The position numbers were made by a program, and so were the translations under genes. A DNA stretch of 64,000 bases from a virus (lineage: Duplodnaviria; Heunggongvirae; Uroviricota; Caudoviricetes): positions 512 through 64,511 of the IMG/VR virus record IMGVR_UViG_3300043568_002650. The stretch is one strand, 5' to 3'. The notes beneath the pieces were generated by a model. That model made no database searches and had not been told where the DNA came from. It saw nothing but the letters and a program-made list of their open reading frames with translations. The number at the start of each line of letters is the position of its first letter. The stretch's first letter is position 1. Positions 43,944-64,000 of this stretch are shown in pieces.

Positions 43944-44229
43944 AAGGTGTTTGTTTTAAGTTGGAGACTTGGGGTTGGCTTGTGCCAGCCCTTTGTTGTT
44001 TACTCCGTAGTGACAGTTTTAGATCAAGACCTGATCGGGCTGTCTCTAGGAATTCTTGGAGACGGGCTAGCCTGCACAATTGCTGTGTACATGACCTGTT
44101 GATGACAACTCTTTAAACGGTTGCAAACAACTTTTGTGTCTCCCGCATTTTATTACTTTTTATTTTCGAAAACGCATTACCCATCCAAAGATTATAGTTA
44201 TATTTACTTATAACTTAAAAACAAAAGAT

Positions 44230-44442
44230 ATGAAAGCTAATGTAAAAGAATTAATGATGAATGCTAAAGAGGCCCTATCTAAAGGTAATCAAATGGTTGC
44301 AAGCGATCACTTAAATAAGGGAATAATCGTCCTCGCTCGATTAACACAAGAGGGAGTGGTAAATACCGAAGGTGCGTCAGTTGACCGATGGAAAGAGAGA
44401 TTTTGGTTTGAGTTAGAAGTCAACGATCTCATCGAAGATTAG
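44230..44442 (+). CDS. early hypothetical protein
   Basis: ATG after promoter; terminator 44462. Confidence 0.7.
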   Translation: MKANVKELMMNAKEALSKGNQMVASDHLNKGIIVLARLTQEGVVNTEGASVDRWKERFWFELEVNDLIED

Positions 44443-44534
44443 AGACACTCAAGATCCTTCTAAACCCGGTTAATCCGGGTTTTTTTATGGAACCTACCCT
44501 CGATTTGGAGTATATAATAAAAAGGAGACCCGCT

Positions 44535-44726
44535 ATGGAAGAACAAATCGAACGTACCCTAGACCAATATTACGACTGGAACAGACCCGAGATAAAAGAT
44601 CTGCAGATACTTGAAGAGTCTCCTGACTTGGGAATCCTGTGTATCCGATGGAGACACCGTGACAAGACCATTACAGTAAAGTCGATATTACAAGATACTA
44701 CACTATTATTAACTGTGTTGAGATGA
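44535..44726 (+). CDS. hypothetical protein
   Basis: ORF; start 44487 or 44535. Confidence 0.55.
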   Translation: MEEQIERTLDQYYDWNRPEIKDLQILEESPDLGILCIRWRHRDKTITVKSILQDTTLLLTVLR

Positions 44727-45022
44727 TGAAGAAACCTTTTAGAGAATGGGCACGCGATCTAGAAGTGGAGATAATATTGGACCGTGATGGAATCAATTTC
44801 TTCCAATGGACTCTCGAAGACGAGTACGAGTCTAGACTGAGTGAAGCTCTGGAATATTTCAGTCAGCGCCCCGACTACTTGAGACAAGAGTGTCAGGAAC
44901 ATCTAATCGAATTAGACCACTTAGAGACTCGCTTTGTCGAGATCGAAGAGTACGAGAAATGTGCCGCCATCCGAGACTTACGTATCGATCTCCAATCTAG
45001 ATATAAGGAATTCTTGGATTAG
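44723..45022 (+). CDS. UVR-motif protein
   Basis: FVEIEEYEKCAAIRDL. Confidence 0.65.
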   Translation: MMKKPFREWARDLEVEIILDRDGINFFQWTLEDEYESRLSEALEYFSQRPDYLRQECQEHLIELDHLETRFVEIEEYEKCAAIRDLRIDLQSRYKEFLD

Positions 45023-45138
45023 CAAGTATCCAAACGTCTCTTGACAAATCTGAAATTATTTAGAAAAAAAGTGTTAAAAAGTTTTTCCCGTTAAAATAAA
45101 ATAGTTATATTTACTTATAACTTAAAAACAAGCACAAC

Positions 45139-45360
45139 ATGAAAAACAAACTAGATATTAAAAGTGATGCTGCTGACATAGTAGAGATGACTCGACCTTA
45201 TCTTGAGATCCCTACCAGCATGATTATAACTATTAAAAAGAATCTTAACTCACTTCTTAAAGAGGAGGCAGAGGGCGACCCAATGGCGATCGCTGCTATT
45301 CGTGCCGCATGGCATATGGAGATATTTGATGCGGATGTTGAACTTGTAAAAAGAAATTAA
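45139..45360 (+). CDS. early hypothetical protein
   Basis: ATG after promoter. Confidence 0.7.
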   Translation: MKNKLDIKSDAADIVEMTRPYLEIPTSMIITIKKNLNSLLKEEAEGDPMAIAAIRAAWHMEIFDADVELVKRN

Positions 45361-45452
45361 GATGTATAGAAGAAAAAGAGCAATACTGAAGGACTACGTC
45401 TCCTTAATTGTAAAGAGACGTGCACAGTACAGAACAATCCAGACTGTTAACA

Positions 45453-45614
45453 ATGAAGAAGGTTGTTAGAGACCCGCACAAGATCAGGCTCACAGCTAGT
45501 CGCGAGTCGCAGAAGAGTCAAGGATTCTTCGATGGTAGATTCGTAGCGAGAGCAGAGGAGTCGAAGAAGAGTTATAAACGTAAACCCAAACACCCAAACG
45601 GAGATGAGGACTAA
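45453..45614 (+). CDS. small basic protein, ArfA-like C-terminus
   Basis: GRFVARAEESKKSYKRKPKH. Confidence 0.5.
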   Translation: MKKVVRDPHKIRLTASRESQKSQGFFDGRFVARAEESKKSYKRKPKHPNGDED

Positions 45615-45834
45615 AGAGTTATTTGCAGAAGACCTAGGTAATGGTAAGACGAGAGTATTTGGACCGTGTGTCTTTACTGGAGAAGAATACAGTTGTGAAG
45701 TACCTACGCAAGGTCTCGAGAGACACCTAGCAGGGGAGCATGCACAGACCGCAATGCCGTCGGTTAGCGCCGATGACAGAGAGTTCCTGATCTCGGGAAT
45801 CTCGCCAGCTGGCTGGAAAAAAACTTTCGGCTAG
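45604..45834 (+). CDS. early hypothetical protein
   Basis: C..TG...C; SADDREFLISGISP..W. Confidence 0.7.
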   Translation: MRTKELFAEDLGNGKTRVFGPCVFTGEEYSCEVPTQGLERHLAGEHAQTAMPSVSADDREFLISGISPAGWKKTFG

Positions 45835-46010
45835 TCAAGTTTTTAAGTTATCGAAGAAGGGGAGCTCGCAAGGCTCCCTTTCCGGTTTACTCCGTAGTGG
45901 CTATTTTAGATCAAGACCCGATCAAGGTGTCTCTAGTCTTTTATTACCCAGTATTCTACCAGTGTATAATAAAAATTATTATATTTACTTATAACTTAAA
46001 ACTAAAGAGT

Positions 46011-46166
46011 ATGACAAAAGGATTTAAAGAGTTACTAAAATTAGCTAAGTCTGCAAAGGTAACAACGTATGATGAATTACAAAACTTGGTCTATGAGTGT
46101 ACCAACGAGATTACTGGAGCCGATTTCGAATGCGTTAGGCAACAGTTAAAGATTAGAATGTTTTAG
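46011..46166 (+). CDS. early hypothetical protein
   Basis: ATG after promoter. Confidence 0.65.
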   Translation: MTKGFKELLKLAKSAKVTTYDELQNLVYECTNEITGADFECVRQQLKIRMF

Positions 46167-46385
46167 ATAATCTTTAAACCCGAGCAATCGGGTTTTTTCA
46201 TGCAGCTTGCTCGCGGGTCTCTGGGAATTCTTAGAGACGAGCCTGATCGGGCAGATGTCTTAGGGGTCCGCGAGTTGTTAACGTCGGCTGGCAACTAAAT
46301 TAGTCTCTTGCTATTTAATTACCCAATCCCTACCAACGTATATAAGAAATTATTATATTTACTATATAACTTAATCCACTAGACC

Positions 46386-46691
46386 ATGACAAAGAAGATA
46401 AACTGCACAGACGTGTATCAAGCTATTCAGGACTTTCTCGGCGGAGAGAACGGTAGTCCACTAATGAACGAACCTTATCGTGACTCGGACGGAGACATAG
46501 TATTTGCAGATTACAATGGAGTAGAGTTTTACGAGCACGCTCTACTTGATTGGTATCGTTCTCTAGTTGAGGATAAGCTTATTGCTGACTCTTTGGAGAC
46601 AGCCGGTGTCAGCATTGAATTGGTTGACGATTATGATTGGCTGGAATCAGACGACCAATTGGATGACGATGAGGATGAAGAAGATTATTAA
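46386..46691 (+). CDS. early highly acidic protein
   Basis: D/E-rich tail. Confidence 0.7.
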   Translation: MTKKINCTDVYQAIQDFLGGENGSPLMNEPYRDSDGDIVFADYNGVEFYEHALLDWYRSLVEDKLIADSLETAGVSIELVDDYDWLESDDQLDDDEDEEDY

Positions 46692-46861
46692 AGTATTGTT
46701 TTAAGTTAAGAATCAGCTCGAGTAATCGGGCTTTTTCTTTTTTGGTTGGATTAGGATCAGGCTGGCGAGTCTCTAGACTTTTATGTAAAAATAGTTACTC
46801 AAGAAGTGTACTAATTAATAAATTATAGTTATATTTACTATATAACTTAAAAACAAAAAGG

Positions 46862-47017
46862 ATGTACAGTTTAAAATGTGATTACTACACAAAGGAGTTC
46901 CCAACGCTAGAGGAGCTCATCGATGATGTTATGGCCAGCGGAATGGACCCCAACCATGAGGTGACAAGAGACGGTCGAGGTACTGGCGAAGATGCCATTG
47001 ATTTTATCATGTTCTAA
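46862..47017 (+). CDS. early small protein (51 aa)
   Basis: ATG after promoter. Confidence 0.65.
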   Translation: MYSLKCDYYTKEFPTLEELIDDVMASGMDPNHEVTRDGRGTGEDAIDFIMF

Positions 47018-47019
47018 TT

Positions 47020-47220
47020 ATGGAGACGTCACTACTTAGCATGTTCCACGAGTTGAATTCATTCGTGCCATGCGCTCAGTACTTCAAATCGGCCAGCGAC
47101 TCTGGAATCACGGTCAGTAATAATAGAAAATTCGCAGGTCTCGTAAGGGAGTGGTCCGCTGGAGACTACGACGAGTGTCCAGACTTGCTAGTACAGAGAT
47201 TAACCAACTTAATCCATTAA
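47020..47220 (+). CDS. early hypothetical protein
   Basis: ORF in operon. Confidence 0.65.
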   Translation: METSLLSMFHELNSFVPCAQYFKSASDSGITVSNNRKFAGLVREWSAGDYDECPDLLVQRLTNLIH

Positions 47221-47223
47221 GCC

Positions 47224-47400
47224 ATGTCAACAAGTGTAAAGTTAATTAGAGGAAATGCAATAGAGATTGAGGTAGGAACCCGTGTAGAGTTCACAGTCGG
47301 CGACGAAGTATTAAGTGATACTATAACCTTTATTGGAGACGACACAATAGAAGGCGAGAAGTTTGACCTAACCCATACTCGATTCCGAGTAGTAGAGTAA
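47224..47400 (+). CDS. early small protein (58 aa)
   Basis: ORF in operon. Confidence 0.6.
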   Translation: MSTSVKLIRGNAIEIEVGTRVEFTVGDEVLSDTITFIGDDTIEGEKFDLTHTRFRVVE

Positions 47401-47620
47401 CAAAGAGCAGCCTAAGCGAGTGTCTCGGCCGGGTAAAGGTGCCGCCGCCAAGAAAGAGACAGGACAGGGGTCAGCGAGAGCTGGCCCTTTCCGGTTTACT
47501 CCGTAGTAACCGTTTTAGATCAAGGCTGGATCCGAGTGTCTCTAGACTTTTATTTCTGCAGGATTTTTTTATTTAAAAGATTATAGTTATATTTACTATA
47601 TAACTTAAAAACAAAAAGAA

Positions 47621-48034
47621 ATGAAAGCAGGAAAGTATTTTATTGGTGACCTATGCTATGTATTAGGAGACCGTTGGGATGAGGTATGCAGCCTCATTAT
47701 TATTGACCATAGTTGTTTGGACGGAGAGTTCGAGCTTAGTGATGGGACCAAATTTGCGATCTATGGCACCGCACATGGAGATGGCGTATATCCTGATCAG
47801 AGAGGCAATGGGTATCCAGTAGATTCGGGTTCGATTGGTTGTGTACTAGTTGATGATATAACAGAGGGAGAATTGGATGAATCCCTAGGAAATATCCATG
47901 ATTTTGAGGAGGACTTTAAGACCGGTGAGGAGAATGGAATAATTAGGATCGGTGATGTTGATATCGATACTCGAGGAGAGTGTGATGACGAGGACCTAGA
48001 TGAATATTTTGAGGACGAAGATGAAGATTACTAG
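47621..48034 (+). CDS. early acidic protein
   Basis: YFIGDLCYVL...TAHGDGVY..VDSGSIG. Confidence 0.75.
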   Translation: MKAGKYFIGDLCYVLGDRWDEVCSLIIIDHSCLDGEFELSDGTKFAIYGTAHGDGVYPDQRGNGYPVDSGSIGCVLVDDITEGELDESLGNIHDFEEDFKTGEENGIIRIGDVDIDTRGECDDEDLDEYFEDEDEDY

Positions 48035-48190
48035 AGTATTGTTTTAAGTTAAGGGTTGGCTCGAGTGATCGGGCCTTTTCTTTGTTTAATCCACGAGTGT
48101 CTCTAGACTTTTGTGCCCAAAAGTTTCTGCAAGATTTTTTTATTTAAAAGATTATTGTTATATTTACTATATAACTTAATAACATAACCT

Positions 48191-48427
48191 ATGTCAGTAG
48201 CAAAAAACAAAGAAGAATGGTGGAGCCTAGTAAGAAGGGACCTCGCTAAGTGGAATGCAGAGAACCATCCAGAAGATCGCATGGGTATTCAAGACTGGAT
48301 CGGCGAAGTTGGACCTAAGATTCATGGATGGATCGCTTTCAGAGATGATGATGGCGATTGGGATGCTTCGTTGAGCGGATTTCCAGAGTACGACGATGAG
48401 GACGAGGATGATGATTACAATTACTAA
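48191..48427 (+). CDS. early acidic protein
   Basis: ATG after promoter. Confidence 0.7.
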   Translation: MSVAKNKEEWWSLVRRDLAKWNAENHPEDRMGIQDWIGEVGPKIHGWIAFRDDDGDWDASLSGFPEYDDEDEDDDYNY

Positions 48428-48438
48428 AAAATAAGAGT

Positions 48439-48660
48439 ATGAAAGTATATCAATTACAGCTATGGGCAACTATCTCATACACACCAGGAGGAGTGTGTCT
48501 AGAGGTAGGTAAGACTTTTGCCAACCGGGAAGATGCCGACAAGGAACTCGATAAGCTCAATAAGAAACTATCCAGAGAATACGACGAGGACGAGGAATTC
48601 CGAGGATTCGAATTGGATTGCGAACCGAACTGGTATATTGAAGAAATAAAAATAAAGTAG
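48439..48660 (+). CDS. early hypothetical protein
   Basis: ORF in operon. Confidence 0.7.
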   Translation: MKVYQLQLWATISYTPGGVCLEVGKTFANREDADKELDKLNKKLSREYDEDEEFRGFELDCEPNWYIEEIKIK

Positions 48661-48771
48661 CCAAGCCCGCGGCCCGCGTCTCTTGTAAAACTTTCAAAAA
48701 AGTTTCCGCAGAATTGTCAAGATTAAAAGATTATGGTTATATTTACTATATAACTTAAAAACATAAAGAGT

Positions 48772-49017
48772 ATGGTATTAGAACCAATTGCACCAGAAAC
48801 GTTACGCGCTCGCCTAAGAGAGGGAGTCGTACAGTTCGCTTTCAAGAAAGTGGACGGAACATTGAGAACCGCTGTAGGCACCACAAACCTTGCCACGATT
48901 CCTGTAGAGAATCATCCAAAGGGCACAGGAACACCTTCCGACAAGTCGGTAAGATTCTTCGACGTGGAGAAGAGAGAGTGGAGAAGTGTGAGTATCCTAC
49001 GTGAAATCTATCTATAA
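48772..49017 (+). CDS. SH3-like beta-barrel (WYL_2/DUF2693-like) protein
   Basis: LREGVVQFAFKKVDGTLRTAVGTTN...FFDVEKREWRS. Confidence 0.75.
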   Translation: MVLEPIAPETLRARLREGVVQFAFKKVDGTLRTAVGTTNLATIPVENHPKGTGTPSDKSVRFFDVEKREWRSVSILREIYL

Positions 49018-49018
49018 G

Positions 49019-49234
49019 ATGAGCACACTAAAGGTAGGAGACACAGTAATGTGGCGTGGCGGATTCGGGAGTGAACCGCCGCGCAAAGCAAAAGTGATTG
49101 GACTAGAGGTATGCCCAGCCGGAGAAAAGTATGGGGAGAGCAGAGACCATGTTGAGTGGAGCAAGATTCACTCCGTAGTGGTAGACCTCGATAATGGTCA
49201 CTGGGCGAAGGGTCATCAAATCTCTCCGCTATGA
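49019..49234 (+). CDS. early hypothetical protein
   Basis: LKVGDTVMWRGGFG. Confidence 0.7.
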   Translation: MSTLKVGDTVMWRGGFGSEPPRKAKVIGLEVCPAGEKYGESRDHVEWSKIHSVVVDLDNGHWAKGHQISPL

Positions 49235-49392
49235 GTATCCTAAGGTTTACAGATGGTGAGAGCTTTGATACTTCAGGGCCCATCAGAAAGGAGGAACGTT
49301 ACGATGGATGGTACGTATTAGGAGACGGGAAGATGATTCCTGTAAGGGACGAGGAAGAAGCAGATAAGGTAATCGAGAGATTAACTAGATAG
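49231..49392 (+). CDS. early small protein (53 aa)
   Basis: ATGA overlap with upstream stop. Confidence 0.6.
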   Translation: MSILRFTDGESFDTSGPIRKEERYDGWYVLGDGKMIPVRDEEEADKVIERLTR

Positions 49393-49770
49393 GAAGTTGT
49401 TTTAAGTTAGGGAGACGATGGGTCAGCGAGAGCTGGCCCTTTGTTGTTCCTATAGGTTTACTCCGTAGTCCGGTTACCCTGCCCGTTGAGACCGGTAGAG
49501 ACCCTCGCTGCCATGGGTGTCGGAGCCCAATCTTAAATCCTACCTTTTTTGAATCACGACCAGTCTAAAGAGTCTCTACAACTATTTTTTCTACACGAGT
49601 GTCAAGTGTCAATTATTATAGTTATATTTACTATAGGGCGTCGTCCTGGAAAAGTACGCAAAATAAGTTAGGCTAAAAATAAAAAGTAGTCTCTGCAACT
49701 ATTTTTTCTACATGATTGTCAAGTGTCAATTATTATAGTTATATTTACTTATAACTTAAAAACAAAAGAG

Positions 49771-50070
49771 ATGAAAACTGTAGTAGAATTAATTATCCCA
49801 ATTGAATCTCAAAATCGTCACACGGGATATGATGAACCTCGTAAAGCAGAATACTTGGCATGTGATATTCAGTCGATGTTCGGAATCAAGCCGACATGCC
49901 TCTTCTTTACTGGAGAACTTAGGATTCAATTTGACCTTAACCAGTTCGAAAAAATTAAATGGTTTCATGGACGCAAGTGGAGGTCTAACGTCACTCACGA
50001 AGTAAAGAGACACGGTAAGATGAATGGATACTCTCCTAACTTAAGAGGCATGAAAATAATTGAAATTTAA
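49771..50070 (+). CDS. early hypothetical protein
   Basis: ATG after promoter. Confidence 0.7.
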   Translation: MKTVVELIIPIESQNRHTGYDEPRKAEYLACDIQSMFGIKPTCLFFTGELRIQFDLNQFEKIKWFHGRKWRSNVTHEVKRHGKMNGYSPNLRGMKIIEI

Positions 50071-50082
50071 TAAGATATAACT

Positions 50083-50382
50083 ATGGAGTGTTGGATAGAA
50101 AGAGGAGACCTTGTATCCTGGATGGATGCACGTAGGATTCAAACAAGAGTGGTCTCTCGAGACGCAGTTGATGGAGACCTGAATCAACAGACTGGCGAGT
50201 GGTTAGTGGTAAAGAGTGACGGAAGAGTCCAGTCCCTTGATGGGCGACTCTGTATTGTAATAAGAGTATTCTCTCACAGTGGACTCCGCGCTCGCTGGAT
50301 TGGAGACCAGGTGCAGGTGCAAGAAAGGGATGGGCGGACCAGAATTTACGATTCCCGCGGATTCTTGCAAAGAGTCTGCTAG
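50083..50382 (+). CDS. early hypothetical protein
   Basis: 99 aa ORF, GAGAC-rich. Confidence 0.5.
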   Translation: MECWIERGDLVSWMDARRIQTRVVSRDAVDGDLNQQTGEWLVVKSDGRVQSLDGRLCIVIRVFSHSGLRARWIGDQVQVQERDGRTRIYDSRGFLQRVC

Positions 50383-50470
50383 GCCGTGTCTCCATACTTT
50401 TATTACCCAATAATTGTCAAGTGTCAATTATTATAGTTATATTTACTTATAACCTAAAAACCTAAACACC

Positions 50471-50680
50471 ATGACAAAAATCAAGTATGACCTTAGCGTG
50501 GACAATCGCTACTTACGAAGAGTAAAAAGTTCCCTTAAAAACGATGAAATAAAGATCCTTGAGAAACACGATCTTCCGGATTGTGGGACCTTGCTCGTTA
50601 TCGAAGGGCCCATTGAAGATATCAAGCATTGGTGTCTATGGAACGAGTTTGACTTTAGTGAAACTAACATTATTCAATAG
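50471..50680 (+). CDS. early hypothetical protein
   Basis: ATG after promoter. Confidence 0.7.
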   Translation: MTKIKYDLSVDNRYLRRVKSSLKNDEIKILEKHDLPDCGTLLVIEGPIEDIKHWCLWNEFDFSETNIIQ

Positions 50681-50685
50681 TGATT

Positions 50686-50928
50686 ATGAAACTAAAGGAA
50701 TTAAAGAAGGAAAATCTCACTGCACACGATGCTTTGATAGAGATGTGGAGCGAGCTCTCACTGTGTTCGCTAGCGACCGCTCGACGATACTTGGTAGCGG
50801 ACATAGGAGACCGCTACCGTTTGGAAAAGACCCTCGATGGTGTCTTTATATTTCATGACTCGGAAGCAGGAGATACGTGGAAGTATTCCGAGAAATTAAA
50901 TGGCTGGACCTGGTTGATAAGCTTTTAA
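50686..50928 (+). CDS. early hypothetical protein
   Basis: ORF in operon. Confidence 0.6.
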   Translation: MKLKELKKENLTAHDALIEMWSELSLCSLATARRYLVADIGDRYRLEKTLDGVFIFHDSEAGDTWKYSEKLNGWTWLISF

Positions 50929-51024
50929 AGCAGGTCACCGAGTCTCTTGACTTTCTTTTTGGCAGGATTGTACTTATTCAAAGATTATTGTTATATTTAC
51001 TATATAAACTTAAAAACAAACAAG

Positions 51025-51249
51025 ATGAAAAAATTATTTTGCGCAGTAGTGTCTGACCCAGACGACGTTTATGGATTAGTGAGTCCAATCATTTACCATA
51101 TTAAGGGTAATAACTCGACTCAAGTAGAGGATGCGGTTCGAGAGATGTTGGAAGACGAATATGATTACGAACCGAAATGGATTGAACAATTAGATATTTT
51201 TACGTTTGAGGTGACTGACGTGGAGATTATTGAATTAGATACACTATAA
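51025..51249 (+). CDS. early acidic protein
   Basis: ATG after promoter; terminator 51255. Confidence 0.7.
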   Translation: MKKLFCAVVSDPDDVYGLVSPIIYHIKGNNSTQVEDAVREMLEDEYDYEPKWIEQLDIFTFEVTDVEIIELDTL

Positions 51250-51375
51250 GATTAAACCCGAGAGATCGGGTTTTTTCATGCACTAGATCTAAGTGTCTCT
51301 TGACTTTTGTTACCGGAAAATTGTACTATGTCAATTATTATAGTTATATTTACTTATAACTTAAAAACAAACAGG

Positions 51376-51741
51376 ATGAATTTAAACGTAACATTAATAG
51401 AGCCTCAAAAGAAAGATTATGAAAGAGTAATCAATTTTGATTGGGACACTACATTCGGTAAGGCAAGTTTCTATGGAAGCGGTGCTCCTTTCTCTCATAA
51501 CGCAGAGAAGATGTCTAAGCTCATCAAAGACCCCGTTAAATTAGTACGTAGAGCTAAGGCAGTTGCGGCTGTATGGGGATTGAACGACTATCATGGAGGT
51601 GTAGGCGGTGGTAATTGGAAAGTCGAGAATGTTTGGACTCCATTTGAGAGAGCTCTACGTTCGATGGGATTTACCCATTCCCAAATTGCAGAGATCGGTC
51701 GTCATGATGTTGATCGAGAATTTATAAGAAGTTTACGCTAG
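51376..51741 (+). CDS. early hypothetical protein
   Basis: ATG after promoter. Confidence 0.7.
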   Translation: MNLNVTLIEPQKKDYERVINFDWDTTFGKASFYGSGAPFSHNAEKMSKLIKDPVKLVRRAKAVAAVWGLNDYHGGVGGGNWKVENVWTPFERALRSMGFTHSQIAEIGRHDVDREFIRSLR

Positions 51742-51797
51742 GATTGTCAAGTATCAAGAATTCTTTGTATATTTAACCATAACTTAAAACTAAAAAG

Positions 51798-52112
51798 ATG
51801 CCAGCATTCACAGAAGGACAAGAGGAGAGAATCCAGCAAGCAGTAAGAACACGGGTTGAAGAATATGTGTCACAGGGCAGAGACGTTGCGTTCAGCCTAG
51901 TAGCATCGACCCATGATAACAGTGACCATATCGTTAGGATCGGCACAAGTATCCTATGTACTCGATGGGGAGTCGGTTATCCAGGCGGAAGCTTTGCACA
52001 GGCAATCGTTGATAACAACTTGAGCGAGGCATTTGGCCGAGCAGATAGTATTAATGTAAATGCTATCCGATTTTATGTAACATTATTATACAATCAAAGT
52101 TACGTATCATGA
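51798..52112 (+). CDS. early hypothetical protein
   Basis: PGGSFAQAIVDNNLSEAFGRAD. Confidence 0.7.
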   Translation: MPAFTEGQEERIQQAVRTRVEEYVSQGRDVAFSLVASTHDNSDHIVRIGTSILCTRWGVGYPGGSFAQAIVDNNLSEAFGRADSINVNAIRFYVTLLYNQSYVS

Positions 52113-52360: not shown

Positions 52361-52527
52361 TTTACTCCGTAGTAATAAGATGTTTTGTTTTAAGTTGTAT
52401 AGGATTGGGCTGGAGAAATCTAGCCCTTCTTTTTGTCTGTATCCACCGAGTCTCTAGCTATTTTTATTCCACCCGATTTTTTATATTCAAAGATTATTGT
52501 TATATTTACTATATAAACTTAAAGACC

Positions 52528-54491: not shown

Positions 54492-54494
54492 GAT

Positions 54495-55831: not shown

Positions 55832-55847
55832 TTTACTCCGTAGTAAG

Positions 55848-56183
55848 ATGAAGAAGGTAATATTATTCAACGGTGAGGACGAAGTAATCGTAACTCCCGA
55901 AGAGATTAAAGAGATGGGGAAATGTGCACCAAAAGAATTAGTATCCTACTTCCAGGCAACTACGATCTATAGAGACGTGATGAAGGATCTCATCAAGGAC
56001 TTGGGCAAGGCAGTGTTAAGTGTTAACGATGAAGAGTTAACTGATCTACGTATCCGGATGGTAGAGTCAGGATATCAAACTATCGCGGCCGAACTGATTG
56101 AAGTATTTGGTGAAGACACTGCTGCCATGATCATGGCTCAAACATATAACGCTATAAACCTAGAGAAAGATGGAAGCATTTGA
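55848..56183 (+). CDS. hypothetical protein
   Basis: ORF in operon. Confidence 0.7.
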   Translation: MKKVILFNGEDEVIVTPEEIKEMGKCAPKELVSYFQATTIYRDVMKDLIKDLGKAVLSVNDEELTDLRIRMVESGYQTIAAELIEVFGEDTAAMIMAQTYNAINLEKDGSI

Positions 56184-56427
56184 TGATCAAGAATTTATCG
56201 CTAAATTAGAAGAGTTAAAGGAGAAAGATATCGACGGATTCATGGGTCTAGTTCTTCTTTCTCTAAAAACCCATCCCGATGTCGCAGTACAAGCTAATAC
56301 ACCCATTGAGAACAAGGTCACGGCCATGAAGAGGGTACTAAAACATTTCGAAGAGAGGGAGGACTATGAGGACTGTGCCTTTCTTCGAGACCTACAAAAA
56401 AGGATTGAAGATGCAGAGGAGAGATAA
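56170..56427 (+). CDS. UVR-motif protein
   Basis: HFEEREDYEDCAFLRDL. Confidence 0.65.
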   Translation: MEAFDDQEFIAKLEELKEKDIDGFMGLVLLSLKTHPDVAVQANTPIENKVTAMKRVLKHFEEREDYEDCAFLRDLQKRIEDAEER

Positions 56428-56668
56428 GTATCTTGTAATGAGTAATAAAGATTTAGACCTTGATTGGGAGCAAGCGCTGAGAGAGACACTCGGCGTTTGT
56501 CATACAGTAAAGCAAGCATATCAAATCGCTCTTTTTCTTGGAGAGATAAGCAAGCCTGATTCAAGTTATCGTAAAGTACTAGAAACTATTAAAGTAAAGG
56601 GTGCTTATACTATTCACCAAAAGGGAGGAGATCAGGCTGCGACAATCGTACAAATAAAACACTATTAA
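56411..56668 (+). CDS. hypothetical protein
   Basis: ORF in operon; start uncertain. Confidence 0.6.
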   Translation: MQRRDKYLVMSNKDLDLDWEQALRETLGVCHTVKQAYQIALFLGEISKPDSSYRKVLETIKVKGAYTIHQKGGDQAATIVQIKHY

Positions 56669-56669
56669 C

Positions 56670-56864
56670 ATGGCAAAGAAAGAAACACCTGAATTACTAG
56701 CTCAAGAGAAGCTAGAGCGCGTCTCTACTTTTGTAGAGGACCGCAAAGAGATTTATTTACAAGAACACAGAGACGCAAGTACCGATGTCGAGAAATTTAT
56801 TTGGTCGGAAATGATTGGATTACTTGATGAAATCTCGATGATTACCGAAGCCGAGAGTCTCTAG
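56670..56864 (+). CDS. hypothetical protein
   Basis: ORF in operon. Confidence 0.65.
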   Translation: MAKKETPELLAQEKLERVSTFVEDRKEIYLQEHRDASTDVEKFIWSEMIGLLDEISMITEAESL

Positions 56865-56938
56865 CTTTTTATTTCTGCCGGATTGTCATGGTTAGGATTA
56901 ATTGGTTATATTTACTTATAACTTAAAAACTAAAGCAG

Positions 56939-57181
56939 ATGACTAAAGAAGAATTTAAAGCTGGCGTTCTATTTCTACACAACGTAAAGAACGATTATCA
57001 ATTTAATCCTAATGATCCAGGATATTTAGGCTTCCTCAACTGTGGAGAGGATATTACAGACGATCCAGGATTTATGATAGTCGTCGATAATCAGGAAGAG
57101 TTCGAGCCAATCATGGAGGAATTAGGACTTACCACCGAACAAGGCATCCATGCTGAAGAGACAGTATTCACCCTAATCTAA
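56939..57181 (+). CDS. early hypothetical protein
   Basis: ATG after promoter. Confidence 0.7.
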   Translation: MTKEEFKAGVLFLHNVKNDYQFNPNDPGYLGFLNCGEDITDDPGFMIVVDNQEEFEPIMEELGLTTEQGIHAEETVFTLI

Positions 57182-57187
57182 GACGAC

Positions 57188-57343
57188 ATGGACTTTTACA
57201 AATGTAAACAATCAGGAGACATATTCACTGAGAACGAGATGTTAGACGAAGTAGATGAGGATGATAACTTAGATTCTTTCTACCACATCGGAGATTTTAA
57301 GACACAGGAAGAAGCAGAACAATTTCTAAAAACACTAAGATGA
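57188..57343 (+). CDS. early small acidic protein (51 aa)
   Basis: fills operon gap; stop overlaps next ATG. Confidence 0.6.
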   Translation: MDFYKCKQSGDIFTENEMLDEVDEDDNLDSFYHIGDFKTQEEAEQFLKTLR

Positions 57344-57609
57344 CACAAGAACAAGCGCAAGTAGTAGCACAAATCCTAGAGAGATTTGATTTTGAGAAAG
57401 TACTCAAGCACATGCAATCAGTAGATTGGAAGTGGTTCGATGAGGTGCCTGATATGGATGATATTAAAGGTACTGCCACTCGTCTCCTAGTCGAAGCTCA
57501 AATGGATCCGCAAGAGGTGGTATCAATGGGAACAGGAGGATTCAGAGTTTACAAACTTCCTTGGGGAATCGAACTTATCTTCTCAATCGAAAGAGGAGGA
57601 AGCTTCTAG
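57340..57609 (+). CDS. early hypothetical protein
   Basis: FDFEKVLKHMQSVDWKW...GTGGF. Confidence 0.7.
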   Translation: MTQEQAQVVAQILERFDFEKVLKHMQSVDWKWFDEVPDMDDIKGTATRLLVEAQMDPQEVVSMGTGGFRVYKLPWGIELIFSIERGGSF

Positions 57610-57711
57610 TCTGGCAGCGGGCCGAGTCTCTTGACTTTTGTTCGAGCCCGATTGTCAAGATTAAAAGGAAATTATTATATTTACTTAAGTCAAATCACTA
57701 AAAATAAAATT

Positions 57712-58092
57712 ATGGCAACTAGAAGCAGAATTGGAGTAGAATTAAAAGGAGGCAAAGTTATTTCAGTGTATTGTCACCACGATGGATACATTACCGGAGT
57801 CGGTTTAGATCTCATAAAGAAGTTCCCACTCATGACCGATCCAAAAATCGTAGAGGCCTTTATCAGGGAGGGCGATCGTTCATCAATCGACCTGTCTTAT
57901 AAAGAATGGAGAGACGAGAAGTGTCCGCCACAAAAACGTGCATCAGTACCACTATTTTTCAATGGAGATATTGAGGCGTATGGATACCTTTACACGGCAG
58001 AGGGAGAATGGTTGGTAAAGAAGGCGGGTTCACAAGTAGAACCGGACCCTGTCCCACTAGATTATGTATTAACTGGAATCATAAACCTGTAA
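57712..58092 (+). CDS. early hypothetical protein
   Basis: MATRSRIG...SVYCHHDGY. Confidence 0.75.
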   Translation: MATRSRIGVELKGGKVISVYCHHDGYITGVGLDLIKKFPLMTDPKIVEAFIREGDRSSIDLSYKEWRDEKCPPQKRASVPLFFNGDIEAYGYLYTAEGEWLVKKAGSQVEPDPVPLDYVLTGIINL

Positions 58093-58095
58093 GCT

Positions 58096-58281
58096 ATGTG
58101 GTATGAAATCAATGTAAGTAAAGATGGGAAGCACTACTTTGCCACCGATGAGAGATCAATCAGTACAATTGATAAGGCGACTGAAATTAGAGACCGACTT
58201 AGACTGGCCATGCCAGAAGACGAAGGATTTATGTATACAATTACACAGTGGCAAACATCCGGTGTACAGTTAGAGAATTAG
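58096..58281 (+). CDS. early hypothetical protein
   Basis: YEINVSKDGKHYFAT. Confidence 0.7.
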   Translation: MWYEINVSKDGKHYFATDERSISTIDKATEIRDRLRLAMPEDEGFMYTITQWQTSGVQLEN

Positions 58282-58464
58282 ACCAAGGTTCCTGCATTTC
58301 CTGGTCGGGTCAGCTTCTTAAGGGGCTGGCCTTTTTTGGGTCCACTCCGTAGTAAAGTTTCTAATTCCTACAGCACAGCGTCTCTAGCTTTTTTATTCTG
58401 CAGGATTGTCATGGTTAGGATTAATTGGTTATATTTACTATATAAACTAATAAACACGATACCG

Positions 58465-58902
58465 ATGAAATTAAAAATCTGTAATAATCTTCACCTCATC
58501 GATGGAAAGATCATAAGCTATTCAACTACGGTAGGTCGAGTGACTCCAACTGGAATAAAAGTAAATGGTAAATATAGCAGGTCTACCACTAAGCATGTTG
58601 AGAAAATCGCTGGAATATTAGGTATTCCAATAGAGTATATTAGCAAGGAAAACCAATGGTTTGATTGGTACGAACTTGGAGCTAACGTCGAATACGATGG
58701 AGCGATTAGTCAAAAATCAACACTAGTTATCTTATCAAAAATACGAGAGACTGGTTGCAGTCTAGTCAATGCGGCAGTACTTGCCTTATCTGAAATAAAA
58801 GGAAAGGACCAGCTTAACTGTATAAACCAACTACTTAAAAAAGGAGTTGATCGTCAGAGAATAGATGACATTCTTACGCTAAGCCAACTTGGATTAATAT
58901 GA
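58465..58902 (+). CDS. early hypothetical protein
   Basis: ATG after promoter; KYSRSTTKH. Confidence 0.7.
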   Translation: MKLKICNNLHLIDGKIISYSTTVGRVTPTGIKVNGKYSRSTTKHVEKIAGILGIPIEYISKENQWFDWYELGANVEYDGAISQKSTLVILSKIRETGCSLVNAAVLALSEIKGKDQLNCINQLLKKGVDRQRIDDILTLSQLGLI

Positions 58903-59000
58903 TCGTTCAGGCACCAGTGTCTCTTGACTTTCTTCACCATATAATTGTCAAGGTTAAAAGATAATGGTTATATTTACTCTATAACTAATATAAAAAGCAG

Positions 59001-59493: not shown

Positions 59494-60642
59494 ATGATCG
59501 AAATCAAAGGAGGTAGAAAAGAACAGGTAGTTCGACAGTGGTTTAACGACACCCATGATGGGATCGTACCACGAGCAAAGGTATTAGATATGTTCAACGA
59601 GTTTGAGCTAGTACCTAAAGACGAGGATATCTCGTACGGGCTCTTCAATGGAGTAATTAAAAAGATACAGGCAGAGGGCCATGGCGCGAGCTCAGCCCAG
59701 GCTCAAGAGTCAAGTGGCCCTCGCCTAATTCACTCCGTAGTAGACTGTGAGCCTAATATTATTAACGTGGAGGACATGGAGTTTCCAAGCTTTGGACTCT
59801 TTCCTACTGGCAAGAAGATCGACGATCTCTTCTCAGACCATGAAGCGGGTGGTGGACTCTACGGCGGCACTGTGAATATCGTAATTGGAGAGTCAGGTGT
59901 CGGCAAGAGTACCGTGATGCTGGACCTCTTAGCCTCTATTGTGGACCAGAATCCAGAAGCTAAGATACTCTATATCTCCAGCGAGATGACTCGTAACGAT
60001 ATCATGTTCTACTATAGAAAGACACCTGCTATTGGCAAGGTGCCTACCCTACTCCTAATGGACTATGTTAAGAACGGTCAATTGGCCCAAGTCTTGGAGA
60101 AGAGTTTCAATGGGGAGCACGACGTTATCTTATTAGACTCTTATCAAGATGTCTTGGTAAAATTGAAGGAGGTACATGGTTGGAAGTCAACTAAAGCAGA
60201 AAGCTGGTTAACTAACATGATGATTGATGCTGCAGAGAAATGTGGTAATGCCGTCTTGGCAATTCAGCACATGACTAAAGGTGGTCAGTATGTTGGTTCT
60301 ACTTATCTTAAGCATGCCACTACCGCGATGTTAGAGATACGTTTCGACTTGACAGGTCAGCGTTATATCGAGTTCTCAAAGAACAGACGAGGCGGTAGCG
60401 GTACTGGTAAGAGACTCTACTACAAGCTTGACGAGACCGGTGCAGTAGTATACGATACCGCTCGCTTTACTGAGACAGAGGAGATGCGTAACTTTGAGAA
60501 CGTGGAAACCCTACGCCAACAGGACTTGACAGCCCAGTTCGAGAATATCTTTCTAGGCGGTAATCGACACCTAGACGAGGACTCCGTAGAAGAGGAGTCG
60601 GGCGAAGTCAAATCGTCAGAGTTCTGGCCAGTTGAAGAATAA
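59494..60642 (+). CDS. RadA/Sms-like RecA-family ATPase
   Basis: Walker A GESGVGKST, LYISSEM, Walker B LLDSYQ, HMTKGG..GSTYLKH. Confidence 0.85.
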   Translation: MIEIKGGRKEQVVRQWFNDTHDGIVPRAKVLDMFNEFELVPKDEDISYGLFNGVIKKIQAEGHGASSAQAQESSGPRLIHSVVDCEPNIINVEDMEFPSFGLFPTGKKIDDLFSDHEAGGGLYGGTVNIVIGESGVGKSTVMLDLLASIVDQNPEAKILYISSEMTRNDIMFYYRKTPAIGKVPTLLLMDYVKNGQLAQVLEKSFNGEHDVILLDSYQDVLVKLKEVHGWKSTKAESWLTNMMIDAAEKCGNAVLAIQHMTKGGQYVGSTYLKHATTAMLEIRFDLTGQRYIEFSKNRRGGSGTGKRLYYKLDETGAVVYDTARFTETEEMRNFENVETLRQQDLTAQFENIFLGGNRHLDEDSVEEESGEVKSSEFWPVEE

Positions 60643-60741: not shown

Positions 60742-61917
60742 ATGAGAGAAGTATCAAATCAACAGTTCGACCTAATTCGAGAAACAATGACCGCTAACGA
60801 GCATGCTACAAAGCAGGTTCCAATCACGGCAATCAAACTTACCGAGCACTCGTTTGCTAGAAATCAAATCGAGATCGGTGGTCAACCAGTAAAGGTATCC
60901 AATGGATTCTTCTTACGAATGGCAAGTATGCTAAAGATGAATGCATCCTTGACCCGAGAGTTTATCAAGAACGACAATTCAAAAGTTGCTGCGGCAATGA
61001 TGAATGCTCTAAACGAGTATCGCCGTTCACAAGGAGGTAAGGACGTCCTAGTCATCGCCAACCCTGAGACCAGAGAGGTGATTGATATCTGTGACCCTAA
61101 ACGTTACAGACGCTTGACTAACGAGTCCTTATTCGACATGACCTCAAAAATCATGAATGAACACCCGTCCCTAATTATAGAGACAGTAGACCACAGTCCA
61201 AGTGGAGGTAATACTTCTATCAACTTCTTGAATTCAGAGGAGGTAGGATTTCCAGGAGCAGGCAATGACGAGTTCTTTAAGTTCGGCTTCTCCATCACAC
61301 AGACTTCTAAAGACACTATCGTCGAGACCTACAATACTCGATTGGTATGTTCCAATGGAATGCGTGTAAGCTTTGGAAGTGGTTCAATCGGTGGTAATCG
61401 TGACATACACTTCGAGGAGAGATTTAAACTAGGAGGAACGGAAGCTGATGATATTAGAACCTTCCTTAACCGAGTGGATGCCATGAAGAAGGCTGGCTTT
61501 GTACCTGGAGGATTCCAACACGCTATCCAATCTGCAGTCGGCACTAAGGCAAGTCTAGCCGAGGTCGAGAACGCAATGATGTTGGCTCAACGTAAAGTTA
61601 GAGAGGACGATCCTCAATTCAAGAAAGGATTTATTGATGCAATCGAACGTAACTACTTCGGCGGTCACCAAGATACCTTAGCACGTATTATGCAAAAGGG
61701 ACAAGACCCATACAAATTGAACGACAAGCAGAAAGGATTTATCAAGACAGGCATGTCAGTATGGGACGTAATCAACTCGCTTACCTACTTAGGTTCAAAT
61801 AACTCAGGCATTGAGTTGGCTGACAAGTACGAGTTGAAAGCACAGGCAGGAGACTTATTCGCCAAAGGATCGAACTCAGGTTTTGACCTACAATTCGCTC
61901 AGTACGCGCAATTATAA
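60742..61917 (+). CDS. DUF932-like protein
   Basis: TYNTRLVCSNG motif; 391 aa. Confidence 0.7.
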   Translation: MREVSNQQFDLIRETMTANEHATKQVPITAIKLTEHSFARNQIEIGGQPVKVSNGFFLRMASMLKMNASLTREFIKNDNSKVAAAMMNALNEYRRSQGGKDVLVIANPETREVIDICDPKRYRRLTNESLFDMTSKIMNEHPSLIIETVDHSPSGGNTSINFLNSEEVGFPGAGNDEFFKFGFSITQTSKDTIVETYNTRLVCSNGMRVSFGSGSIGGNRDIHFEERFKLGGTEADDIRTFLNRVDAMKKAGFVPGGFQHAIQSAVGTKASLAEVENAMMLAQRKVREDDPQFKKGFIDAIERNYFGGHQDTLARIMQKGQDPYKLNDKQKGFIKTGMSVWDVINSLTYLGSNNSGIELADKYELKAQAGDLFAKGSNSGFDLQFAQYAQL

Positions 61918-61935
61918 GTTGGTTTGACGACGGGA

Positions 61936-61960
61936 AAGGGAGCTTCGGCTCCCTTTTTTT
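61936..61960 (+). terminator. intrinsic terminator
   Basis: AAAGGGAGC-TTCG-GCTCCCTTT followed by U tract. Confidence 0.85.
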
Positions 61961-62225
61961 GTGCCTAATATTTTACTCCGTAGTCCGGGTCTCTGCTATC
62001 GCGCGTCGTAACACGCCCGCCCGTACACGGGAGCAGGCCCGGGTCTCTGGTTTTCCCTGCCCGCCGGGGCTCATGACAGCCTAGTCTACCATGGAGCTCG
62101 AGGCCCAATCTAAGGAGGCACAGTTTCCCTTGGCGAGGCTTTGTCACATGACCGGTAAGTTTCTATATAGACGAGAAGAGGGTCCCTTAGAGAGAGCCTG
62201 TTAGACTGATGTCATGAAGTAACTA

Positions 62226-62600
62226 TTAGAAGCCTTTGAATAGACGGTGATGTATGAGTCTATCCATACCTCCTTCACGTAGAGACTGGAGATCCTGTAA
62301 ATTAATTAGGATTACCTGGGCAGGAGAGCTACCACCGCCATCGTCAGTATCGTCCATGATCCAGACAGCATTTACCCCAGGCAGGAGCTCATGCACGCTA
62401 CTCTCTACCTCGCCACTCTTAGTCAGCGGTAAGATATTATTAAAGGTAGTAAGCATCCCATCAAGCTCGGCCCAGATAGGATCCTTCTCGGTGACGGTCA
62501 CGATTGGAGACTCTATCCGCTTTAAGATCGCGGCACGTTGCCAGTCATAGAGTATCTCGTCTATCTCTTCGGGCAGGTTAGGTATAGTATAGTGCTTCAT
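62226..62600 (-). CDS. hypothetical protein
   Basis: 124 aa; C-terminal LFKGF resembles its neighbours. Confidence 0.65.
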   Translation of the reverse strand: MKHYTIPNLPEEIDEILYDWQRAAILKRIESPIVTVTEKDPIWAELDGMLTTFNNILPLTKSGEVESSVHELLPGVNAVWIMDDTDDGGGSSPAQVILINLQDLQSLREGGMDRLIHHRLFKGF

Positions 62601-62603
62601 AAG

Positions 62604-62963
62604 TTAAAAATCTTTAAATAGGTAGGTTATCGCCGAATTCCCATTAAAGTCCCGAACAGCAAGTAAATAGCGTGGGGTCGTCTTAACGTAGGCGGGGATA
62701 TACGTTTCGCCGAAATTGAAGCAGTACATATTGTTGAGGTCATATTCAGTACTACTCCAATAGGATGCAAGTTGCCATTTGCTGGCTCTAACATTAGGAA
62801 TCTTTGAGACATTCGGCAGGAGGATCCTTTTAAATTCATCAAGTGTCGGTGCCCTCCAATTTGGACCTAGTGCAGCCATAGCATCTAGCGCTTCTCCCCA
62901 AGTCATCTTGCCAAAATCCTCTGGCCAAACCTGTAAATCCTCTATTATTATCACGTCTTCCAT
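62604..62963 (-). CDS. DUF1566 (C-lectin-fold) protein B
   Basis: MTWGEA..WRAPTLDEF..YWSSTE..AVR. Confidence 0.85.
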   Translation of the reverse strand: MEDVIIIEDLQVWPEDFGKMTWGEALDAMAALGPNWRAPTLDEFKRILLPNVSKIPNVRASKWQLASYWSSTEYDLNNMYCFNFGETYIPAYVKTTPRYLLAVRDFNGNSAITYLFKDF

Positions 62964-62966
62964 AAG

Positions 62967-63317
62967 TTAAAAGTTTTTTAGTAATAAGCCAATCGCAATC
63001 TCTCCAGTAATGTCCCGAACCGCACGCACATAAGATGTGGTGAGCTTAAAGTAGTCGTGAGCATTCCCATTGTAGACGTTGAAGAACCACGCGATGTTGG
63101 CGTCACGCTCTGTACTACTCCAATAGTAGGCGAAGGATATAGTTTTTCCAAACAGTTTCTCCCTATTTGGATAGAGTACCTCCCTAAATTCTTCAATGGT
63201 CGGCAGGCGCCAACCTGGACCTAGCTTAGCTACTTCAGCTGTAGCTTCGTCCCAAGTCATCTTACCAAGATCCTCGGGCCAAATTTCTAACTCCTCTATT
63301 ATTAGCGCGTCTCTCAT
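62967..63317 (-). CDS. DUF1566 (C-lectin-fold) protein A
   Basis: MTWDEA..GWRLPTIEEF..YWSSTE..AW.FN..G....YVRAVR. Confidence 0.88.
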   Translation of the reverse strand: MRDALIIEELEIWPEDLGKMTWDEATAEVAKLGPGWRLPTIEEFREVLYPNREKLFGKTISFAYYWSSTERDANIAWFFNVYNGNAHDYFKLTTSYVRAVRDITGEIAIGLLLKNF

Positions 63318-63328
63318 AAAGATATTTA

Positions 63329-64000
63329 TTACATTAAGTCGGAAAGATTCTCCTTGCTAGGAGTCTCTGGCTTGTCCTCCCAATTAGGTGTGATCTTGCC
63401 GGGGTGCTCGCGTCTCTGCTTTTTCCTTGGCACAGGTAAGACATCCCCGTCTAGCTTGTCTAACCTGTCTACCCCTGCTTTAAGTAGGAGATTCGTGAGA
63501 TCCTTCTCCTGTTCTAACCTATACTCTGGCACCGTGATGGCCGAGTTGATTACCACCACCTCTACCCCATAATATCGGAACCAGGCCGGAAAGATCTCCC
63601 AGCCTACTCGAGCCAGTCTGTCCGGCGTCTCTACTATAATCACCGACACCTTCTTTTTAATTACATCTTGGATTAGCTCATGCAGACCGGGTCTCCAGTC
63701 CAGAGAGAAGTCAGTAGCCGGGCACCAGTCGTCGTAGAGCTTTTCCAGAGAGATACCCCGCTGTGCTGACCAGTTTCGGACTAGTTGTTGTTGTCTCTGC
63801 ATGAGGGCTCGGTCGGACTCCGTAGTCCCGGCTACCCTACAATAGGCTACAGCCCAGTTATCTCGCACAAGTCTCTTGCCGAGTAGAGCATAGATGTCGT
63901 CGTCCCAGTACATCTTACGACCTTTGGCGTCTTCGCTATACCTGATCCTACCTTTCTTGGTCCATGACTTTAGGGTGTTATAGCTACAGCTGAGTACCTC
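63329..64000 (-). CDS. tnpA: IS607-type serine recombinase (MerR-like HTH plus resolvase), 5' end outside the window
   Basis: frame open to the edge (CSYNTLKSWTKKGRI); AYCRVA, QRQQQ, ETPDRLARVG. Confidence 0.85.
   Translation of the reverse strand, partial: EVLSCSYNTLKSWTKKGRIRYSEDAKGRKMYWDDDIYALLGKRLVRDNWAVAYCRVAGTTESDRALMQRQQQLVRNWSAQRGISLEKLYDDWCPATDFSLDWRPGLHELIQDVIKKKVSVIIVETPDRLARVGWEIFPAWFRYYGVEVVVINSAITVPEYRLEQEKDLTNLLLKAGVDRLDKLDGDVLPVPRKKQRREHPGKITPNWEDKPETPSKENLSDLM

Follow-up and report, generated by a model that had tools for sequence, protein, structure and literature searches.

The word ACTCCGTAG recurs along one strand of a 64,000-nucleotide stretch of phage DNA (the window; bases 512-64511 of the 128,511-bp virus record IMGVR_UViG_3300043568_002650), together with a gene for a resolvase-like protein that is a candidate reader of these sites. 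The record derives from lake water and represents a large tailed phage whose DNA is also contained in public lake metagenomes. Its portal protein is 30-38% identical to the portals of huge uncultured phages and of Lak phages; the phage is large, of lytic type and myovirus-like, and not a temperate siphovirus. The window holds 13 exact plus-strand matches to the word and none on the minus strand; dinucleotide-preserving shuffles yield a mean of 0.24 copies and a maximum of 2. An earlier note on this DNA had listed the same 13 positions at spacings of 0.3-3 kb, without reverse-strand copies and without any copy in the first 43 kb, and had placed the chance expectation well below one; these observations hold, for the strand bias and the empty first 43 kb over the entire record. 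The complete record contains 17 copies, all on the plus strand, between 44002 and 66175 in window coordinates; four of them (64145, 64384, 64976, and 66175) lie past the window end, and the last 62 kb of the 128.5-kb record are again free of the word. The genome-wide map that the note had proposed therefore retains the strand polarity on all 17 copies, but confines it to a single 22-kb block. A T follows the word in 15 of 17 copies, and four of the copies had been noted before as GGACTCCGTAGT. One-mismatch variants occur at chance frequency on both strands, so the word is essentially invariant.

Terminator-like hairpins with T-runs are found a few bases upstream of six copies. Copy 1 (44002..44011, in the context GTTT-ACTCCGTAGT) follows the hairpin at 43971-43992 by 10 nt; copies 2 (45889..45898) and 3 (47498..47507) lie past a hairpin and T-run, the latter upstream of an early promoter cassette; copy 5 (49460..49469) lies past the hairpin at 49420-49439 and 9 nt ahead of a conserved non-coding element; copy 9 (58344..58353) lies past the terminator hairpin at 58307-58332; and copy 12 (61975..61984) lies past the terminator of a DUF932-like gene. 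Two copies are placed directly at gene junctions: copy 6 (52364..52373) begins 3 nt past the stop codon of an open reading frame (ORF; 52109-52360), and copy 8 (55835..55844) lies 3 nt past the stop codon of a sigma factor gene and 3-4 nt before the next ATG. Three breakpoints of homology between the window and the related contig L005 coincide with sites; homology stops exactly at copy 2, and copy 6 is an indel breakpoint. Within plus-strand genes are copy 4 (49170..49179), in the small ORF 49001-49234; copy 7 (54739..54747, followed by A), in ORF 54495-54827; copy 10 (59732..59741), 238 nt into a RadA-like ATPase gene, in a variable linker; and copy 11 (60581..60589, followed by A), close to the 3' end of the same gene. 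Copy 13 (63817..63826) lies antisense in the resolvase-like gene, as the first of a cluster at the 5' end of that gene that continues with the copies at 64145 and 64384. Intergenic copies thus occur beside copies in genes of either orientation, as the note had described: five to seven are within ORFs, four of them in plus-strand genes, always in the frame xAC TCC GTA Gxx, and one antisense in a minus-strand gene, while the remainder are intergenic. Under a generous ORF model that classifies 81% of the sequence as coding, 7 of 17 copies fall within ORFs (binomial P = 0.0003). The copies remain on the plus strand even across islands of minus-strand genes.

The peptides encoded just downstream of several copies resemble each other in otherwise unrelated genes (..V/I-I-L/x-F-N-G/V-E-D-E/M..; window 55848-56183, 59732-59800, and 54739-54800, and L096:4001-4258), as if a unit of site plus gene start had been duplicated; in the ATPase gene this unit appears fused behind an N-terminal extension.

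Related loci, collected with the sigma factor, the ATPase and the resolvase-like protein as queries, carry the word in about 25 lake-phage contigs, nearly always on a single strand and only within a block of 8-25 kb. Among approximately 190 distinct sites, the opposite-strand form ACTCCCTAG occurs once in L082 and once in G008, the latter more than 110 kb from the block of that genome. Ten copies are found in an 8-kb block of the 271-kb genome G005, and 13 copies in an 11-kb block of the 253-kb genome G004; the partial or smaller records G001, G002, and G003 carry 9, 16, and 14 copies within stretches of 15-19 kb. Two clades can be distinguished by their version of the site. The G-type, to which the window belongs, is nearly uniform: its loci contain 66 copies of the 10-mer ACTCCGTAGT and 16 of ACTCCGTAGA, with other variants at background. 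The sister clade (C-type), whose sigma factor is 42-47% identical, uses ACTCCCTAGT with a few G-type copies intermixed. Although the proteins of the two clades share only 30-50% identity, copies are found in syntenic positions after the sigma gene, twice in the ATPase gene, past the terminator of the gene for the 391-aa DUF932-like protein (copy 12), and in or before the resolvase-like gene; the junction at copy 8 is kept in all G-type relatives. The in-frame copy in the ATPase gene specifies Ser-Val in the G clade, with the codon GTA, but Ser-Leu in the C clade, with CTA, so that the codon tracks the version of the word used by each clade. In the resolvase-like gene, the codons that the antisense copies overlap are not the same in both clades. 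It is therefore the DNA word, and not the proteins, that is under selection. In the C clade, tandem arrays of the word at 56-58 bp spacing adjoin the resolvase-like gene. Across all relatives, 1-12 nt separate the word from the end of the upstream plus-strand gene in approximately 21 of 85 intergenic copies; a second mode places it 42-73 nt from the gene end, past hairpins, and the next ATG follows at anything from 2 to 600 nt.

One lineage carries the entire set of sites in reverse. G006 (127.5 kb) matches the record in gene order and orientation and is collinear with it over its full length by tblastx, yet its gene-sense strand repeats ACTACGGAGT, the exact reverse complement of the word, in 16 copies on one strand of a 25-kb block. 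These copies occupy equivalent places: one is located 216 nt into the ATPase gene, in the same linker as copy 10 and its C-type counterpart; one is separated by 4 nt from the ATG that follows, in the same family of small genes; and others are just ahead of the conserved non-coding element and clustered at the 5' end of the resolvase-like gene. The nearest kin of G006 carry the normal word. In about 25 lineages the word points along the main gene direction, without flipping in minus-strand islands, and in G006 the set is reversed. The copies must accordingly run parallel to one another, but no fixed direction ties them to genes or backbone. Such an inversion is difficult to square with a promoter, with a signal in RNA, or with one in the non-template strand. 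The suggestion of a Chi/KOPS-like polar signal in the earlier note fails at this point, because the word is local in all full-record maps (in the record itself, 17 copies in 22 kb of 128.5 kb) and its orientation is inverted in a collinear relative; the more general part of that proposal, a functional and strand-coherent signal at the DNA level, under strong selection and with a phage-specific reader, stands.

In an alignment of 82 G-type and 72 C-type distinct sites, information is confined to positions -3 to +12, approximately, and reads (T/G)(T/G)(T/G)-ACTCC(G/C)TAGT-(A/C)(A/C). The site is a pseudo-palindrome of about 16 bp, KKK-ACT-CC|GT-AGT-MMM, with ACTCCGTAG(T) as its core: the ACT and AGT arms are complementary, and so are the flank preferences (T/G on the 5' side, A/C on the 3' side). 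The halves are nevertheless unlike (ACTCC vs. ACTAC, or ACTAG in the C clade), and the perfect palindromes ACTCCGGAGT and ACTACGTAGT are not used as sites. Within single sites the 5' and 3' flanks are uncorrelated. Symmetry without covariation, together with the exact reverse complement in one lineage, fits a duplex site that is read with two-fold symmetry, and not a hairpin in RNA or single-stranded DNA or the -10 element of a sigma factor; a stem-loop was considered and rejected on the lack of covariation. No -35-like or -10-like partner was detected at any spacing among 189 sites, where peaks of TAnnnT, TAnnTTT, and TTG are absent; a MotA-box-like arrangement of a -30 box and a -10 element was discarded for lack of a downstream TAnnnT or TAnnTTT peak. 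Searches by name and similarity were equally empty: 40-64 kb gave no Rfam match at E <= 1, GenBank phages gave none to 44-52 kb by megablast, and a literature search on the word and its variants retrieved only primers and nucleosome sequences.

The gene with the site cluster at its 5' end (63329..64114, minus strand; 63329..64000 within the window) encodes a MerR-type helix-turn-helix (HTH) followed by a serine-recombinase-like domain, the domain order of the IS607 family. Pfam assigns HTH_17/MerR_1 to residues 33-77 and Resolvase to residues 88-192, and the closest solved relatives are catalytic domains of IS607-family TnpA (3LHK, 6DGC, and 6DGB). The TnpA proteins of this family use an N-terminal DNA-binding domain, nucleate on short direct-repeat motifs of 9 bp, and can take hold of a second DNA (PMC6188088). 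In the window protein, Ala stands where the MJ0014 motif 'YARVS' has its Ser, and six other lineages have Ala, Asn, or Gly at this 'RVS' position; since the nucleophilic serine is replaced, the protein looks like a domesticated, non-cutting DNA-binding protein. Its gene position is fixed and syntenic in 27 loci of one phage family, unlike that of a mobile element, and no tnpB-like match was found among the scanned ORFs of the block, where the adjoining minus-strand ORFs encode 116-124 aa. These ORFs (window 62226-63317) are three tandem paralogs between the genes for the 391-aa and resolvase-like proteins, with a 135-nt stretch repeated at 75% identity. The word is found at all 27 resolvase-like gene loci, clustered upstream of and within the 5' end of the gene and on one strand. 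Three relatives, G010 (464 kb), G011 (178 kb), and G012 (246 kb), have a sigma ortholog (42-44% identity) and no Resolvase-domain gene, and the word family ACTNCSKAGT is at background in their genomes; G012 is complete with terminal repeats and retains the ATPase, the 391-aa DUF932-like gene and early promoter cassettes of its own. This co-occurrence and joint absence make the resolvase-like protein the candidate reader.

Based on these comparisons, the word is tentatively interpreted, at somewhat less than even confidence, as the binding site of the phage's own MerR-HTH and IS607-type resolvase-like protein, with a regulatory or architectural function. A relative of transposases without its catalytic serine would bind DNA but could not cut it. 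Bound to the dense site cluster at the 5' end of its own gene, the protein would regulate its own synthesis, in analogy to resolvase at res. Another 10-15 sites, distributed over gene junctions and the interior of a few genes in the early and middle block, might allow it to stop or insulate transcription units in the manner of mycobacteriophage stoperators, or to bridge directly repeated sites, much like the dimers of IS607 transposase that hold transposon ends together. The effect of binding could accordingly be a roadblock, insulation, looping, or activation. The uniform orientation would then mean that sites are parallel to each other, not that they keep a fixed direction relative to genes, a feature that the bridging capacity of IS607 transposase dimers could explain. 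A more specific version, in which the serine-less transposase was recruited as a chromosome-organizing switch whose dimers bridge 10-17 parallel 10-bp sites and thereby fold and silence the whole early-gene block, or co-regulate it in another way, is decidedly unlikely; if it applied, only the mutual orientation of sites would matter, and a lineage could invert the whole set.

Several observations weigh against the resolvase-like protein as a regulatory or architectural reader. The link between protein and site comes from one phage family and three negative genomes, and these are the most distant relatives, so that shared ancestry could produce the same pattern; a search for distant homologs of the protein in viral contigs returned only the same family, and hence no independent lineage in which the link could be examined. 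Sites of transcription factors are rarely as invariant as the G-type copies. The in-place inversion of all 16 sites of G006 is hard to account for, and since stoperators of the L5 type fail when reversed, a strictly polar roadblock does not fit this lineage. Some copies appear promoter-like in their placement, 25-41 nt ahead of start codons that lack a cassette, and several before the non-coding element. Finally, because another Ser is conserved a few residues past the canonical position, residual catalysis retains a small likelihood.

Among characterized systems, the repressor gp71 of mycobacteriophage L5 binds more than 20 strictly conserved, oriented, asymmetric 13-mers in intergenic spaces; these stoperators occur throughout the genome, point along transcription in either arm, and do not work in reversed orientation (PMC9283540). 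The phage sites share with Cluster A stoperators the many conserved, short, asymmetric copies in coherent orientation, in short intergenic spaces and near the regulator's own promoter or at its gene, the lineage-specific variants, and a phage-encoded HTH protein as the reader, here a candidate; they differ from those of L5 in their restriction to one block, their plus-strand orientation even in minus-strand gene islands, their set-wise inversion in one lineage, their pseudo-palindromic structure, and an IS607-type candidate reader. IS607 TnpA resembles this reader in domain order, nearest structures, short direct-repeat motifs, and dimers that hold two DNA segments; in contrast to IS607 and IS1535, the serine is replaced, a TnpB partner and transposon ends are missing, the gene is a fixed core gene, and the motifs are distributed over 8-25 kb instead of 40-60 bp. 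At the res locus of Tn3/gamma-delta, three inverted-repeat sites within 114 bp support recombination, and the resolvase is autoregulated. The several sites right upstream of a recombinase-family gene in a divergent intergenic region are similar and suggest self-repression, whereas the phage protein has lost the serine and the majority of the sites lie far from its gene. The system is not a member of the phiKMV nick-site family, of the Chi/KOPS signals, or of the canonical sigma promoters; it would work most like a stoperator array.

Other members of the conserved block are neighbors of the sites. The sigma-70-family factor (55112..55831, plus strand) has regions 1.2-2.4, 3.2, and 4 but no sigma-3 domain, and is preceded by a host-type cassette; it adjoins the sites and is probably not their reader. 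In C-clade phages the main sigma gene is accompanied, approximately 4 kb upstream, by another sigma-like gene that is longer and about 24% identical to it (L017:5685-6683 and L030:41-733). The RadA/DnaB-like AAA_25 ATPase (59494..60642, plus strand) is followed by the 391-aa protein (60742..61917, plus strand), which is DUF932-like by language-model neighbors only; its structure model is poor (14-sequence alignment, pLDDT 62, pTM 0.38), and a search for related loci with this protein found none. The conserved non-coding element occurs twice on the plus strand, at 49479..49545 (CCCTGCCCG..GCCATGG..GGAGCYCAAYC), directly past copy 5, and at 62058..62125, 85 nt past copy 12. This GC-rich element recurs in five relatives, with a tRNA gene after it in L032. 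Candidate identities are a small RNA and a gene for a short peptide. No Rfam match and no consensus fold (9 sequences) were obtained, and a scan of the collection recovered only the same phage family and chance matches.

The left part of the site block overlaps a zone of host-type promoter cassettes (40865..58977, plus strand). Between 40.8 and 59 kb of the window, dense small plus-strand genes each follow a repeated cassette of about 90 nt; 25 of these share the architecture TTGTCA-N18-TATATT with the TATATTTAC box (25 copies, plus strand only) and an inverted repeat. Counted by near-identity, approximately 25-30 cassettes of the form GTGTCTCTWGACTTTT .. ATTGTCAAG .. TATAGTTATATTTACTTATAACTTAAAAAC .. 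ATG precede almost every small gene at 40830-59010. They are read as probable host-type early promoters, a signal class distinct from the word, and the shape of the box together with A-rich leaders lacking a Shine-Dalgarno sequence suggests a host among the Bacteroidota. Breakpoints relative to L005 and deletion joints in lake metagenomes fall mostly on cassettes, which suggests cassette-mediated gene shuffling, by analogy with the PeSL elements of T4. A further motif, TAGTATAAT, occurs in 11 copies, only on the minus strand, between 67.2 and 118.7 kb of the genome and ahead of minus-strand genes; it is probably a third (late) promoter class, and the T4 late box TATAAATA is rare (7 copies). 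Dense runs of GGTCTC or GTCTC(T/C) every 10-90 bp mark the two non-coding control regions at 40300-40860 and 64150-64380 and the cassette heads, and between 40 and 65 kb GTCTC per 5 kb is raised 3-6 fold on both strands. Window positions 13725-22553 hold 25 tRNA genes in an array that lies entirely on the plus strand. Other k-mers that are abundant near distant sigma homologs turned out to be tandem coding repeats or a CRISPR-like array and were rejected as analogs of the word; the array, in a 467-kb genome (L039:10940-11150; IMGVR_UViG_3300021431_002946), consists of four 61-nt units past a sigma-like gene, each with the 29-nt repeat GGAATAACCTCCGTRTGYAYGGAGACAAT and a unique 32-nt spacer, and looks like a small CRISPR array, with two more single repeats of the GGAATAACCTCCGTRTGYAYGGAGACAAT type nearby. 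One metatranscriptome run matched about 7% of the sampled words of the DNA; no RNA match is listed for 44-54 kb, and RNA contigs of a 90-95% relative cover parts of 55.7-61.9 kb. One of these begins 13 nt past copy 11, although contig ends are no evidence.

The position of the sites past terminators and their enrichment between genes would also suit a phage-specific promoter for a class of middle genes, one that consists of a single element and is recognized by the phage sigma factor together with the core RNA polymerase of the host. Copies lie 25, 29, and 41 nt before the ATGs at 64418, 65014, and 66225, in genes without a host-type cassette, and 5-9 nt ahead of the non-coding element in five relatives, followed by the tRNA in L032; the early promoter of the sigma gene makes a cascade plausible, and the three motif classes (host-type cassettes, the word, and TAGTATAAT) fill successive zones of the genome. 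A precedent is the promoter element tAATGTAtA of the phiEco32 sigma factor gp36, which lacks region 4 (PMC8948821), a compact element of 9-10 bp without a -35 partner in a phage that encodes a sigma-70-family factor. On this analogy the sigma factor was the first candidate for the reader. However, it keeps region 4 although no partner element accompanies the sites, and the two-fold symmetry of site and flanks is not that of a -10-like element with a fixed gene direction. Variants of the word are not mirrored in the region 2.4 and 4.2 helices of the sigma factor: these are near-identical in L080 and L081, which use opposite words, and strongly unlike those of the window in the L032 group, where the word is the same. 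The three sigma-bearing relatives without the word break the co-occurrence that a sigma reader would lead one to expect, and the exact reverse complement at the same positions in G006 would, as a mere sequence variant, have a chance of approximately 1 in 54 to 1 in 405. Some copies leave no more than 2-7 nt to an ATG, a tandem spacing of 56-58 bp would be odd for promoters, and no T7-like RNA polymerase (PF00940) was found in the record or three related records, a weak blank since the control also had no match. A middle promoter thus appears unlikely. A signal at the level of RNA or the transcription bubble, including an ops-like non-template element that loads an elongation factor, would account for copies in coding and non-coding parts of plus-strand transcription units and for the variable distance to start codons; the RfaH ops element GGCGGTAGnnTG shares CGGTAG, a putative partial resemblance. 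This explanation is extremely improbable, as G006 places the complementary word in both the RNA and the non-template strand at the same positions, the flanks neither covary nor form an extended hairpin, copies lie antisense in islands of minus-strand genes, and neither a NusG/RfaH-like gene (NusG, PF02357) in the record or three related genomes nor an Rfam match was detected.

Where the sites are regarded as positions of strand breakage, uniform orientation that is arbitrary relative to genes becomes acceptable, and the word resembles the nick sites in the virion DNA of T5, tf, and phiKMV-like phages; the earlier note had named T5 and phiKMV-like phages in its proposal of programmed nicks. The tf-like sites (TACTRTGMC) are invariant, occur on one strand and at similar positions in relatives, and differ by single bases in consensus among relatives, and the phiKMV consensus is CGACxxxxxCCTA/CTCCGG (PMC3517423); the invariant 9-10-mer of the lake phages is likewise restricted to one strand, at similar positions and with one-base differences among lineages. 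Heterodimeric nicking enzymes read asymmetric pseudo-palindromes, a property that counts for nicks. The likeness that had been noticed to phiKMV is real for TACTCCG, which Group-1 copies have in common with CCTA/CTCCGG, but does not extend further: the word continues as CCGTAG and not CCGG, and as no information exists upstream of -3 in the 82 and 72 aligned sites, the CGAC half that precedes CCTACTCCGG by 5 nt has no counterpart. The sites, known here from sequence, are regional: their block takes up 6-17% of the genome near a single gene module, and they are placed tightly at gene junctions and ahead of the non-coding element; the only nuclease-family protein tied to them lacks its nucleophile, and no candidate nickase was found. 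Programmed nicks are accordingly improbable. Crossover sites of an integron-like cassette system, in which the resolvase-like protein or a partner exchanges small early genes between directly repeated sites, a very improbable explanation, would be consistent with a recombinase-family gene at the edge of the small-gene array, with sites 1-12 nt past stop codons and shortly before ATGs in the manner of attC, with the three L005 breakpoints on sites, and with block gene content that is shuffled among relatives. Yet no lineage retains the catalytic serine, promoter cassettes rather than sites account for most breakpoints and for every strain-level joint seen in metagenome contigs, and exchange at the sites inside the conserved ATPase gene would be destructive.

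Long blocks of small early genes are a feature of large uncultured lake phages; if the resolvase-like protein is the reader, a domesticated IS607-type transposase and its array of identical, parallel sites would control or organize one such block. In the literature searched, no report of the word or of such a use of an IS607-type protein was found, an absence that is not proof. Should the sites instead prove to be nicks or promoters, the comparative map indicates where to look. The three natural versions of the site (G, C, and reversed), each with a matching protein of its own, constitute a ready specificity series for experiments, and a 10-bp site with a small binding protein could be used as an orthogonal regulatory part. 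For the phages themselves, the proposed function would represent a second, independent invention of the stoperator principle, and a clear case of transposase domestication in a phage.

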